From a virus (Duplodnaviria; Heunggongvirae; Uroviricota; Caudoviricetes), in IMG/VR virus record IMGVR_UViG_2617270945_000014: DNA of 10,350 bases, one strand, 5' to 3'. The position numbers were made by a program, and so were the translations under genes. Positions 2,931 to 9,741 of this stretch are shown here, piece after piece (positions within the stretch are counted from its first letter, which is position 1; every line of letters starts with the position of its first letter). The notes beneath the pieces were generated by a model that saw only the letters and a list, made by a program, of their open reading frames with translations, was not told the origin of the DNA and did not search any database.

Positions 2931-3086
2931 TTACTCCTCAGGTTCGTAAGCTGTGAAGACAGCGACCTCCGTCTGGCCGGTTCGGAGTCGTACCTCGCAG
3001 AGGTCTTTCCTCGTTACCAGTGCCGTCACTATGACGGTTAAACAGATGACGATCAGGGCGATTAACATCGCCTTTTGCTGCTTCAT
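2931..3086 (-). CDS. hokD: Hok/Gef-family type I toxin (small membrane-depolarising peptide), HokD/RelF-like
   Basis: 51-aa product MKQQKAMLIALIVICLTVIVTALVTRKDLCEVRLRTGQTEVAVFTAYEPEE, recognised from memory as near-identical to E. coli HokD/RelF and close to Gef/HokC. It has one transmembrane helix and the conserved Cys. Start taken at the internal ATG (3084-3086) rather than the 70-aa in-frame extension. Confidence 0.9.
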   Translation of the reverse strand: MKQQKAMLIALIVICLTVIVTALVTRKDLCEVRLRTGQTEVAVFTAYEPEE

Positions 3087-3323
3087 AGCCTGCTTCCCCT
3101 TGCCTTTCGGCACGTAAGAGGCTAACCTACATTTGTGAGACATAGATTGGGCCTCAGATTAATGTTAAGCGTCTTGCAGGACGCGAAATGTTAACTGGGG
3201 CTTTTCTCTATCTGCCTTTCAGTGTTCATGCCTGAGACAGATAGCCTCAAGCACCCGCAGCCATTCTACTTAACTCACGTCACCTCGCCAATATGAAATC
3301 AATCAGAAAGGTGATCCATAAAA

Positions 3324-4010
3324 TCACTCCTTCTCTTCTTTTCCGTAGTGGAGTTGGCCAATTTTGATAAGAGGGCGTCCCTGAGATTTGCGGTGTAGAT
3401 TGGTATCGCGCAGAGAATACACACAGCCACAATATTCCTGCTGATAGAATTTTTCGCGCTTGCTGATTTCAATCATACGGGACGAGCCGCCCTGCTTGCG
3501 CCAGTTATAATCCCAGTACACCATACCCGGATAATGCGCAACAGCTCGCCGCCCACACTCGTTAACCTGCTGCATATTTTTCCAGCGTGAAATGCCCAGT
3601 GAACTGCTGATCACACTGAAACCATTTTCAGCAGCGTACAACGCTGTCCGCTCAAAACGCATGTCAAAACACATGGTACAACGGATCCCCCTCTCAGGCT
3701 CCCATTCCATTCCTTTGGCACGTTCAAACCAGTTGTCGGTGTCGTAATCAGCATCGATAAACGGCACGCCGTGTTGTTCAGCAAAGCGAATATTTTCATC
3801 CTTACGAATTAAATACTCTTTCTGAGGATGAATGTTCGGGTTGTAGAAAAAGATGGTGTAGTCGATTCCCGAGGCCTGAAGCGCCTCCATCACTTCACCG
3901 GAACATGGAGCACAGCAAGAGTGCAGTAGTAGTTTGTTTGCCCCGTTTGGGAGCTCCAATTTAGGCCGTTTGAAATCAGCAATAGTCATAAATATTTTTA
4001 TTGGGGTCAT
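3324..4010 (-). CDS. queH: QueH-like epoxyqueuosine reductase homologue (DUF208 family); start codon uncertain (3989 or 4010)
   Basis: 228-aa ORF with motifs recalled for the QueH/DUF208 family: N-terminal [27 protein letters not shown] and C-terminal [11 protein letters not shown] (Cys-rich Fe-S ligand pattern). Neither candidate ATG has a clear Shine-Dalgarno sequence. Confidence 0.65.
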
Positions 4011-7134: not shown

Positions 7135-7560
7135 TTAGTGCATCACCACAGCATTCCCTGCCGGGCCGCCGCGATTCATCTGGTCATACAAAACAACCGC
7201 TGACGCAACAAAATCATCGACATCCTTCCCCAGCCGATCCCTCCGTTCGACGATCTCACGGTAATATTCAGAACTGTGGCTGCGCATACGGGCCACCAGC
7301 AAAGGCGGCATCGCCTTTTCGATCGCCGGTAACAGAGCCTGCATTTTTTCAACAGCATCAGGGGTGTCTTTCTCTACCCAGCGGAAAATTTTCTGGGTAT
7401 TGCGAGCCAGGGCTTCCGGATGGCTGTCGTCATACAGTTCCGGGAACGTCATACCCAACTCAAAATAAGCCTGGGTTATTCCAGCTGCTGGAACTTTTTC
7501 GCCATCAGGACGCGCCCAGGCATTCATCGCCATGCGGATGTGTTCATGCTTGATTTTCAT
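7135..7560 (-). CDS. YdaT-like protein (Rac prophage YdaT family; in the cII position)
   Basis: 141-aa ORF with AGGAG 9 nt upstream of ATG 7560, overlapping the end of the YdaS-like gene by 17 nt. Size and position match Rac ydaT. Sequence identity is recalled, not searched. Confidence 0.65.
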   Translation of the reverse strand: MKIKHEHIRMAMNAWARPDGEKVPAAGITQAYFELGMTFPELYDDSHPEALARNTQKIFRWVEKDTPDAVEKMQALLPAIEKAMPPLLVARMRSHSSEYYREIVERRDRLGKDVDDFVASAVVLYDQMNRGGPAGNAVVMH

Positions 7561-7825
7561 GAATCAAGCTCCTAGAAAGTGGTTGTGTTAACGTTTTGGT
7601 ATCTTCCAGCTCGGGCCAAATATTCATCCAATCAAAAGGCCTTAGTTGCTGACGTGTAACTTCACCATTACTGGCTCGCTCAATAAGGACACATAACGAT
7701 GCCCCTAACACTTGACCTTTACTCAATGCCTTTCTTAGATAACCGATGCTGGTACCACACTCGCATGCAAACATACGCTGTTCATCTGACGAAAGAGAAT
7801 TGAGAAATATTCTTAATTCTTCCAT
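7544..7825 (-). CDS. Cro-like HTH regulator (YdaS/DicC-position), first gene of the early-right operon
   Basis: 93-aa ORF with AAGGAG 7 nt upstream of ATG 7825. It is divergent from the repressor gene and contains an HTH-like segment (CGTSIGYLRKALSKGQ). Confidence 0.7.
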   Translation of the reverse strand: MEELRIFLNSLSSDEQRMFACECGTSIGYLRKALSKGQVLGASLCVLIERASNGEVTRQQLRPFDWMNIWPELEDTKTLTQPLSRSLIHENQA

Positions 7826-7854
7826 AGCTACTCCTTAGTAAACACAGCAAAGAA

Positions 7855-7930
7855 TACCCACAGGTAAACAAAAGTCAATACCCATAGGTTGTTTACCTTG
7901 CGGTAATCGCATCTATTATTTACCTATGGA
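7855..7930. promoter_or_regulatory. Divergent promoter/operator region between the cro-like and repressor genes (OR-like)
   Basis: Three copies of a 12-bp dyad motif: TACCCACAGGTA (7855-7866), TACCCATAGGTT (7879-7890) and TACCTATGGA (7921-7930, overlapping the repressor ATG). There is also a perfect 10-bp inverted repeat, AGGTAAACAA (7862-7871) / TTGTTTACCT (7889-7898). Confidence 0.65.
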
Positions 7931-8345
7931 CAAATATGAATTTAGACGACAGCAACTCATCAAAATTCGTGATGAGAAATGCGATGGTAAAGCGGTTAAC
8001 GTGGCCAGAAAGATCGGGCGCGAGCCTTCTTATGTATCAAGAATGTTGTACCCAGAGGGGAAAAAGGGAAAAAAACGGATCGCTGATGATATGGTGGAGA
8101 TTATCGAAGAGTCCTTTGGGTTACCCCGGGGATGGATGGATGGTATCGTTTCATCATCAACGAACACAGCCTCCAGTTATGAAACAAGGGTTCTAACGCC
8201 ACGACAACGTATTTTTTTAGATCTCTTAGACGAACTGCCAGAAAGTGAAGCGGATAAATTATTAAAAACTCTTGAAGAGAAAAAACAGTATTACAATATG
8301 ATCTACGAAGAAATCCGTAAAAAGAAAGCACAAAACGCATCATAG
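7926..8345 (+). CDS. Prophage repressor, DicA/RacR-like HTH protein (no S24 peptidase domain)
   Basis: 139-aa ORF divergent from the cro-like gene. It has an N-terminal HTH-like region, and its C-terminal LPESE…LL motif resembles DicA (…LPESEQ…) as recalled. No Shine-Dalgarno sequence precedes the ATG, so the mRNA may be leaderless. Confidence 0.7.
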   Translation: MDKYEFRRQQLIKIRDEKCDGKAVNVARKIGREPSYVSRMLYPEGKKGKKRIADDMVEIIEESFGLPRGWMDGIVSSSTNTASSYETRVLTPRQRIFLDLLDELPESEADKLLKTLEEKKQYYNMIYEEIRKKKAQNAS

Positions 8346-8385
8346 CTCACCAAACAACTAGTCACCAGTTAAGACACCGCAAAAA

Positions 8386-8426
8386 TTTACCCATGGGTAT
8401 TTACTTTTTAAATACCTATGGGTATC
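8386..8426. promoter_or_regulatory. Second operator cluster (OL-like) downstream of the repressor gene
   Basis: The perfect palindrome TACCCATGGGTA (8388-8399) and TACCTATGGGTA (8413-8424) lie 25 bp centre-to-centre, the same motif and spacing as in the OR-like region. Confidence 0.6.
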
Positions 8427-8610
8427 CTTCTTTTCATACCAACCCACCCCGCCCCACAGAATGCAGGGCAATACTTCGAGTTACCAGGCAGTGGTCAGGG
8501 GTTAAGTAGCCAGCCCGAGGCGTAAGAACATGACGGCAGGGTTCAACTTTAATAACTATGCAGCAGGTTTTTGTTCCGCTACCCCGGCGTTAAGGGGAAA
8601 TGAGGTCAGC

Positions 8611-8763
8611 ATGGATACTATCGATCTTGGCAACAGCGAATCTCTGGTATGTGGCGTGTTCCCCAACCAGGACGGTACGTTCACCGCGATGACGTATACC
8701 AGAAGCAAAACGTTTAAAACTGAAGCTGGCGCGCGTCGCTGGTTAACCAGAAACACTGACTGA
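8611..8763 (+). CDS. DUF1391 small protein (YdfA/YdaF-like), first gene of the early-left operon
   Basis: 50-aa product MDTIDLGNSESLVCGVFPNQDGTFTAMTYTRSKTFKTEAGARRWLTRNTD, preceded by GAGG 5 nt upstream. The longer 77-aa ORF from 8530 lacks a Shine-Dalgarno sequence. Sequence and position match YdfA/YdaF as recalled. Confidence 0.7.
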   Translation: MDTIDLGNSESLVCGVFPNQDGTFTAMTYTRSKTFKTEAGARRWLTRNTD

Positions 8764-8774
8764 TGAGGTTGACG

Positions 8775-9095
8775 ATGGAATTTAAAGATTTACCAGTACC
8801 ATTCCAGGAAATGGCATCGAATGTGGTTCGCTCTCAACTGGCGACTCTTGACCTGAGTACCGTAGAAAAAGAAACCATCGACAATATATCCGGTAACGTA
8901 CGCCGAGCCTTTATCGGGCTGTACGAAGAGAAGCAGCTCTCTGATAACCAGGATTTACATGAAAAATACTTCCTGGATCTAATGGACATCATTGATAAGG
9001 GGTTTGGCTTGTTAATGAAAAAGAAAGGGATTCGAATAGAACCCCTTGAAAATTACTTTGCAACAAAAAGCATTAATTCTTTTGATTCAAAATAA
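8775..9095 (+). CDS. Hypothetical protein, 106 aa, in a low-GC cassette (alternative start 8763)
   Basis: ORF in a markedly AT-rich block. GAGG lies 6 nt upstream of ATG 8775, and the alternative ATG 8763 overlaps the upstream stop (TGATG). Acidic/Lys-rich composition; no recognisable motif. Confidence 0.5.
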   Translation: MEFKDLPVPFQEMASNVVRSQLATLDLSTVEKETIDNISGNVRRAFIGLYEEKQLSDNQDLHEKYFLDLMDIIDKGFGLLMKKKGIRIEPLENYFATKSINSFDSK

Positions 9096-9683: not shown

Positions 9684-9741
9684 TTTCTGGTGACGTTTGG
9701 CGGTATCAGTTTTACTCCGTGACTGCTCTGCCGCCCTTTTT
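9684..9741 (+). ncRNA. dicF: DicF small RNA (ftsZ-targeting sRNA of Qin/Kim-type prophages); 5' end approximate
   Basis: Sequence TTTCTGGTGACGTTTGGCGGTATCAGTTTTACTCCGTGACTGCTCTGCCGCCCTTTTT matches DicF as recalled. It ends in an intrinsic terminator and lies immediately upstream of dicB, as in K-12. Confidence 0.75.
9699..9741 (+). terminator. Intrinsic terminator forming the DicF 3' end
   Basis: GGCGG (9699-9703) … CCGCC (9731-9735) stem, followed by TTTTT (9737-9741). Confidence 0.65.

Follow-up and report, generated by a model that had tools for sequence, protein, structure and literature searches.

As is generally known, the immunity switch of phages lambda, 434 and P22 is built from divergent, back-to-back promoters overlaid by three imperfect palindromes, with a second operator cluster at the early-left promoter, and in 434 and P22 operators flank a short repressor gene. 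The Qin prophage carries a variant of this design, with operator sequences in both the dicA-dicC and the dicA-dicBp regions, and its 135-aa repressor DicA, which has no RecA cleavage site, is antagonised by the antirepressor Rem (PMC10448788). A further relative is phage mEp043, for which no published operator mapping was found in the open literature, older subscription literature being outside that coverage; two papers that mention mEp043 together with a repressor do not deal with operator mapping, judging by title or abstract. Here we describe a 10,350-bp stretch of viral DNA (IMG/VR record IMGVR_UViG_2617270945_000014; Caudoviricetes), referred to below as the window, in which palindromes of the form TACC-N4-GGTA flank a gene for a 139-aa protein. 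These palindromes are very probably the immunity-switch operators of a lambdoid (Qin/Rac-like) E. coli prophage.

The probable operator motif and its conservation

The element TACCN4GGTA has four exact matches in the window (at 7855, 7894, 8388 and 8413), where 0.09 were expected, and none of 200 shuffled sequences reached this number. All four copies fall within the two intergenic regions that flank the 139-aa gene. The original prediction had counted five copies of a degenerate motif, TACCYAYRGGTA, which is real and non-random (0 expected from 200 shuffles) but exact at only three positions (7855-7866, 8388-8399 and 8413-8424), the 8388 copy being the sole perfect palindrome among the copies. 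The other two proposed copies are near-matches, with one mismatch at 7879-7890 (TACCCATAGGTT) and two at 7921-7932 (TACCTATGGACA). A sixth copy at 7894-7905 (TACCTTGCGGTA) keeps both outer half-sites but falls outside the degenerate motif through its different core. Centre-to-centre distances are 24 bp from 7855 to 7879, 15 bp from 7879 to 7894, 27 bp from 7894 to 7921, 42 bp from 7879 to 7921 and 25 bp from 8388 to 8413. The predicted regular step of 24-25 bp between adjacent sites holds for the first two right-hand sites and for the left-hand pair, but not for a third right-hand site, which lies either 15 bp (7894) or 42 bp (7921) from the second.

Comparison with related loci shows which of these positions are maintained. 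Loci were chosen because they encode relatives of the N-terminal domain of the 139-aa protein, and were drawn from mEp043, Serratia, Yersinia, Salmonella, other E. coli, Edwardsiella, Brenneria, Pantoea, Leclercia, Atlantibacter, a Hydrogenophilaceae metagenome-assembled genome and a metagenome contig. For the alignment, 16 upstream regions from loci picked by protein similarity only, with no pre-selection of sites, were aligned with MAFFT. Upstream of the ATG, the invariant columns were TACC (7855-7858) and GGTA (7863-7866) at site 1, CAATACC (7876-7882) and a G (7887) at site 2, and TTTACC (7892-7897) and GGT (7902-7904) at site 3, and the single invariant column outside the sites was the A at 7851, the last base of the -10 hexamer of the early-right (PR-like) promoter. 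The start of the repressor gene, ATGGA, was also invariant, while operator cores, spacers and flanks varied freely. Measured from the ATG, sites 1, 2 and 3 are found at -72/-73, -47/-48 and -32/-33 across the relatives, with a first step of 24-25 bp and a second that is always 15 bp, and in 12 relatives site 2 was located by position alone, without the use of a pattern. This conserved 15-bp step from site 2 argues that 7894, and not 7921, is the true third right-hand operator. The left half of the 7921 copy is gone in most diverged relatives (mEp043, Serratia, Yersinia and others) and degraded in the Salmonella locus, while its right half coincides with the coding sequence ATGGAyAAA; the comparison thus rejects it as a conserved third operator, and it may be an auxiliary half-site at most and is possibly fortuitous.

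The three right-hand sites also occupy fixed positions relative to two promoter-like sequences, one on each strand, found in a promoter scan with a cut-off of 9 of 12. Site 1 falls in the PR-like spacer and shares 2 bp with the -10 hexamer, with its centre at about -16.5 from the predicted PR start and at -65.5 from the predicted start of the repressor-maintenance (PRM-like) promoter, distances relative to the latter being given throughout this cluster with 7926 taken as +1. Site 2 lies directly next to the PR-like -35, with its centre at -41.5 relative to the predicted PRM start. Site 3 is centred at -26.5 and overlaps the PRM-like -35 (TTTACC) and spacer. The PR-like promoter would serve the operon of Cro-like, YdaT-like and replication genes, with a Shine-Dalgarno sequence AAGGAG given by the complement of 7831-7836. 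On the other strand, the -10 ends 6-7 nt before the ATG in all 17 loci compared. The arrangement TTTACC-16-TAnnnT is present in 15 of them (the remaining two have 17-18-bp spacers and a GATACT -10), and 12 of the 17 have no Shine-Dalgarno-like tetramer upstream of the repressor gene. Because the -10 ends so close to the ATG, mostly without a Shine-Dalgarno sequence, the repressor mRNA is likely to be leaderless, with its predicted start at the A of the ATG (7926). The lambda cI mRNA transcribed from PRM is likewise leaderless.

Table 1 Sites, promoter-like sequences, genes and RNAs of the switch region, with positions in the window (OR, right operator; OL, left operator; PL, early-left promoter).
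Feature	Position	Strand	Remarks
Operator site 1 (OR1-like), TACCCACAGGTA	7855-7866	.	Exact match; TACC and GGTA invariant in the 16-locus alignment, core and flanks variable
Operator site 2 (OR2-like), TACCCATAGGTT, weak right half	7879-7890	.	1 mismatch; CAATACC and right-half G invariant in 16 loci
Operator site 3 (OR3-like), TACCTTGCGGTA	7894-7905	.	Exact TACCN4GGTA; TTTACC and GGT invariant, 4-bp core variable in 16 loci
Weak near-match, TACCTATGGACA	7921-7932	.	Centred on repressor start codon; 2 mismatches; lineage-specific
PR-like promoter, TTGACT-16 bp-TATTCT	7851-7878	-	Scan 9/12; predicted start near 7844; -35 (TTGAnn) kept in relatives
PRM-like promoter of the repressor gene, TTTACC-16 bp-TATTAT	7892-7919	+	Scan 9/12; -10 ends 6 nt before ATG (7926)
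OL-like operator a, TACCCATGGGTA, perfect palindrome	8388-8399	.	Exact match; abuts PL-like -35; colinear with site 2 of the PR module
OL-like operator b, TACCTATGGGTA	8413-8424	.	Exact match; in PL-like spacer, 2-bp overlap with -10
PL-like promoter, TTTACT (8400-8405)-17 bp-TATCCT (8423-8428)	8400-8428	+	8/12; predicted start near 8435
RNA hairpin: two OL sites and palindromic spacer, 16-bp stem, then UCCUUCUUUU	8388-8434	+	Terminator-like scan match
Repressor gene, 139 aa, annotated 'hypothetical protein'	7926-8345	+	phrog_5736
Cro-like gene, YdaS-related, 93 aa	7544-7825	-	72% identical to mEp043 Cro; weak YdaS match; phrog_35
YdaT/CII-like gene	7135-7560	-	
DicF antisense RNA	9685-9736	+	76.7 bits; downstream of PL-like promoter

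The probable left-hand operator pair

The proposal that the repressor gene is bracketed by OR-like and OL-like clusters was upheld, and both clusters overlap promoter-like hexamers. The PL module repeats the PR module colinearly in inverted orientation: in both, an operator is followed by a -35, seven bases and a second operator overlapping the -10 by TA. The PL-like promoter would serve the ydfA-like/DicF/dicB operon and is the equivalent of Qin dicBp. In 16 loci the OL pairs are spaced 25-26 bp apart. A -35-like hexamer (TTGACC, TTGACT, TAGACA and TTTACT among others) comes right after the first site, at the same position relative to operator a in each, and the final TA of the second site begins a -10-like hexamer (TATATT, TATGCT and TAATCT among others). 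In mEp043 and a Yersinia locus (L005) the OL pair is found upstream of the N gene, one to two kb from the repressor start. Furthermore, the sequence that the window has in common with phage Tritos, which has a different immunity, begins about ten bases past the predicted PL start near 8435, and this is the module boundary expected if transcription starts there.

The same pair can be read as RNA. The segment 8346-8445 folds strongly (minimum free energy -23.4 kcal/mol, z-score -5.3), and a terminator scan returned a stem of 16 pairs closed by a 5-nt loop, with TCCTTCTTTT as its tail, raising the alternative that 8388-8424 is mainly an intrinsic terminator placed before the toxic dicF and dicB genes rather than an OL pair or, in a softer form, that it does both jobs. 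A terminator at this position would make sense because the repressor transcript otherwise reads into dicF and dicB, and hairpins are strongest (-20 to -24 kcal/mol, versus -6.6 to -17 where OL lies far from cI) in the three loci with OL directly 3' of the repressor gene. However, these three loci are close relatives and not independent observations, and neighbouring copies of one palindrome are bound to pair, which makes a hairpin largely unavoidable here. Two close relatives of the window lack the T-rich tail (4 T in 10 in L030 and 1 T in 10 in L029), and the OL pair keeps its promoter geometry even where it lies kilobases from the repressor gene, just upstream of N. It is therefore improbable that termination is the main role of the pair, while a dual role as operator and terminator is possible but rather unlikely. 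Compensatory changes in the hairpin between the window and L030 were also considered as evidence for an RNA structure and were dismissed, as the core consensus is Y-R-Y-R and most combinations pair anyway.

The repressor and the probable binder of the sites

The 139-aa protein matches phrog_5736 ('transcriptional regulator') from end to end (E 6e-70), and its proposed identity as a phage repressor encoded divergently from a Cro-like gene was borne out, although a Pfam search with the protein gave no match, including to PF00717 and HTH_3. Over residues 1-74/86 the protein shows 65-82% identity with the N-terminal domains of repressors of the LexA family (PF00717; 221-242 aa) from Salmonella, Edwardsiella, Pantoea, Klebsiella and phage mEp043 (cI), and the stretch REPSYVSRMLYPEGKxGKKRIADDM is near-invariant among these N-terminal-domain relatives. 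Residues 89-134, by comparison, align with residues 84-129 of DicA (33% identity, E 2e-7), and the C-terminal domain matches the 139-aa 'CI' of phage Tritos at 39.5%, a protein that is related to DicA over its whole length and thereby links DicA to the 139-aa repressor. Of the original assignment as 'DicA/RacR-type', what remains is a DicA-like C-terminal domain: BLASTP against DicA returned no alignment in the N-terminal domain, and RacR-type identity was rejected, BLASTP showing no similarity to RacR (best E-value 2.3).

The predicted structure is in line with a two-domain organisation. A sequence search of the PDB with the 139-aa protein gave chance-level matches only (E at least 0.08), while the AlphaFold2 model (pLDDT 83) shows an N-terminal helix-turn-helix domain followed, after a disordered linker (residues 76-87), by a helical hairpin whose terminal helix is long. 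Foldseek matched this model best to Rep of Salmonella phage SPC32H (E 1.7e-3, probability 1.0), an antirepressor-controlled repressor whose complex with the antirepressor Ant is seen in the PDB (5d50/5d4z); Rep has a similar N-terminal helix-turn-helix domain, but the TM-score is only 0.46 and the identity 17-22%. The S24 peptidase domain is not present, as the protein ends at residue 139 with its helical C-terminal domain, whereas the homologues of the N-terminal domain carry PF00717. As judged from these relationships, the repressor is a mosaic of a CI-type DNA-binding domain and a DicA-type C-terminal domain, without a self-cleavage domain, and the same operator set thus occurs with two different induction modules, either an S24 or a DicA-type C-terminal domain.

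Some database homologues of the repressor differ in reading frame. Eight of them (P0010, P0013, P0014, P0016, P0017 and P0019, and also P0005 and P0029) start in an alternative frame at 7936 or leave the frame near A-runs. The A-runs at 8059-8077 (GGGGAAAAAGGGAAAAAAACGG) encode GKKGKKR, and the alternative open reading frame (ORF) spans 7936-8196. This suggests that frameshift alleles of the repressor exist at homopolymer runs in some E. coli genomes.

Across the loci the motif tracks the N-terminal domain of the repressor, being present with either an S24 or a DicA-type C-terminal domain and with either a lambda-type CII or a YdaT neighbour. Since the motif follows this domain, its distribution points to the repressor as the binder of the sites, and the co-inherited Cro, by analogy with lambdoid phages, probably uses the same sites too. 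Five Klebsiella loci (L009 and L012-L015) carry the motif without a Cro homologue within 4 kb and without a small divergent ORF. These loci encode 233-aa S24 repressors and have sites at -73 and -33 (positions ~3925-4000), with site 2 replaced by TTTGCTATATTTT, and they may represent stand-alone autoregulated LexA-like regulators rather than prophage switches.

The same loci bear on the alternative that only the Cro-like (YdaS-family) protein uses the palindromes as operators, or that Cro has an operator of its own in a nested inverted repeat (AGGTAAACAA / TTGTTTACCT), as had been suggested, with the 139-aa protein binding elsewhere. Cro homologues (43-91% identity) do accompany the motif in most loci, but in the Klebsiella loci the N-terminal domain (78-80% identity) and the sites occur together where Cro is missing, and the invariance of the TACC half-site is mirrored by a recognition-helix region, REPSYVSRML, that hardly varies. 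The nested repeat is present in the window (7862-7871 / 7889-7898), where it lies inside a 20-nt, 80% complementary pair (7852-7871 / 7889-7908) that corresponds to site 1 against site 3. Its first arm is the right half of site 1 with a flank that is variable in relatives, while its second arm consists of the PRM-like -35 (TTTACC), which is also the left half of site 3, together with a flank, and is conserved as a -35 and as the junction of sites 2 and 3. The nested repeat was rejected as an independent element on account of this variable flank and conserved -35; it simply results from the operators and the promoter -35, and binding by the Cro-like protein alone, at either set of sequences, is very improbable.

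The CII-like YdaT protein is an extremely improbable binder and was rejected: although Rac YdaT footprints the racR-ydaS intergenic region (PMC11879457) and the window encodes a YdaT homologue (30% identity), most motif loci either carry a lambda-type CII or lack YdaT altogether, the motif was not found in the 3.3 kb examined of Tritos despite its 86% identical YdaT, and the window holds a separate, perfect YdaT-box at 7550-7567. This box is the perfect inverted repeat TTGATTTTCATGAATCAA, whose spacer contains the start codon of the YdaT/CII-like gene (minus strand, 7560), and it fits the published YdaT-box 5'-TTGATT-N6-AATCAA-3' of CP-933P and Rac (PMC11879457). In Rac, YdaT acts through this box to activate a reverse PRE-like promoter inside ydaS, which drives the repressor gene (PMC11879457).

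The proposed switch and its relation to known systems

Positions 7400-8900 of the window match E. coli chromosomes at 99.9% identity, and 683 of 5,426 complete E. coli genomes cover at least 80% of the 1.5-kb region around the switch. In NZ_CP062910, for example, the region sits within a lambdoid prophage integrated beside ompW. The repressor and cro-like genes are divergent, with start codons 100 bp apart and promoter-like sites on both strands that each score 9/12. On the minus strand, the Cro-like and YdaT/CII-like genes are followed by O-like and DnaC-like genes, with RusA and Q-like antiterminator genes farther along, and on the plus strand the repressor gene is followed by a DUF1391 (ydfA-like) gene and the DicF RNA, with dicB, an exonuclease gene, xis and int outside the window. 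A conserved 5' leader of ~175 nt stands before ydfA, and the leader of the ydfA-like operon (CCACCCCGCCCCACAGAATGCAGGGCAATACTTCGAGTTACC..., window ~8446-8530) is nearly identical in phage Tritos (L003, ~1990-2055). On the other arm, a sok antitoxin RNA (3081-3256, minus strand, 120.5 bits) adjoins hokD.

This gene order is that of the Qin dicC-dicA-ydfABC-dicF-dicB region, with a cro-like gene, a divergent short repressor gene (135-139 aa) and then ydfA, DicF and dicB. The two loci also have a homologous repressor C-terminal domain and the last part of the ydfA leader in common, but the N-terminal DNA-binding domains are unrelated at the sequence level and the Qin operators are TGTTAG-type. 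The 'compressed' layout that the original prediction had noted is not unusual, as a short repressor gene flanked by operators has been described before, for Qin dicA; the Qin dicA-dicBp region holds three operator sequences (PMC10448788), compared with two in the window. Phage mEp043 has operators that agree with those of the window in consensus, number and spacing (OR sites at -72, -47 and -32 and an OL pair separated by 25 bp), the same leaderless promoter geometry, a repressor N-terminal domain that is about 65-76% identical and a Cro that is 72% identical. In contrast to the window, mEp043 encodes a 228-aa cI with an S24 self-cleavage domain and a lambda-type CII rather than YdaT, and its OL is located upstream of N, at a distance of ~1.1 kb from the start of cI. 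The locus can thus be described, from these similarities, as the Qin design with another DNA-binding domain and operator sequence, both of which are common to mEp043 and many enterobacterial LexA-type repressors.

Differences from lambda, 434 and P22 are modest. The window resembles these phages in its divergent back-to-back promoters, three imperfect palindromes and second cluster at the early-left promoter, as well as in the 24-bp spacing of sites 1 and 2, the position of site 2 at ~-42 of the maintenance promoter and the leaderless repressor mRNA, which is predicted here. It differs in the 15-bp spacing of sites 2 and 3, in the placement of site 3 on the -35 and not the -10, in having two OL sites and not three, in the absence of an S24 domain and in its 12-bp core, TACC-N4-GGTA.

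In the proposed switch, dimers of the 139-aa repressor would bind the sites through the CI-type N-terminal helix-turn-helix domain. Occupation of site 1 would block the leftward PR-like promoter and keep the cro-like, ydaT-like and replication genes off, and cooperative binding at site 2, 24 bp away, would complete the repression of PR. From site 2 the repressor may also activate its own promoter, an effect we consider somewhat less probable than its absence. Site 3, positioned over the -35 of the repressor promoter, would provide negative autoregulation, which is moderately likely, or shut-off by Cro. The 8388/8413 pair, with the same geometry on the PL-like promoter, would keep the ydfA-dicF-dicB-exo-xis-int operon silent. 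With a C-terminal domain of the DicA kind in place of a LexA-type peptidase domain, the repressor should not need RecA-stimulated self-cleavage for induction, which would probably require an antirepressor.

Several observations weigh against this interpretation. No paper reporting these 12-mers as operators was found in the literature covered; the six papers that contain one of the six 12-mers are on unrelated subjects, apart from one phage paper. The loci in the site table were partly picked by the pattern TACC....GGTA, which makes their support circular for sites 1 and 3 and for OL; site 2 and the 16-locus MAFFT alignment are free of this circularity. In most loci Cro and repressor are co-inherited, so that the two cannot be told apart as binders. 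The PL-like promoter scores 8/12, which is under the scan cut-off of 9. In addition, sites 2 and 3 are only 15 bp apart centre to centre, leaving a 3-bp gap, versus the 23-bp operator spacing of lambda, and such a spacing may lead to mutually exclusive occupancy of sites 2 and 3 rather than to lambda-like stepwise filling. Nevertheless, the feature is real and almost certainly functional, and it belongs to a familiar class, the lambdoid OR/OL immunity switch.

The locus leaves the existing view of lambdoid switches unchanged and offers a natural example of a repressor with exchanged DNA-binding and induction domains. The defined operator consensus (TACC-N4-GGTA), the site map and the predicted promoters make the switch directly testable, and cross-immunity with phage mEp043 is predicted, the operator consensus being held in common and the N-terminal domains being about 76% identical. 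Two further readings, taken jointly, are tentative and on balance unlikely. In the first, an operator-recognition module (N-terminal domain, OR, Cro and OL) would circulate with either an S24 or an antirepressor-controlled DicA-type C-terminal module; if so, phages and prophages with a common immunity would respond to different induction signals. In the second, the OL pair of this lineage would have grown into a strong hairpin with a U-rich tail that also terminates the maintenance transcript, in which case the toxic dicF and dicB genes would be insulated from the repressor transcript.

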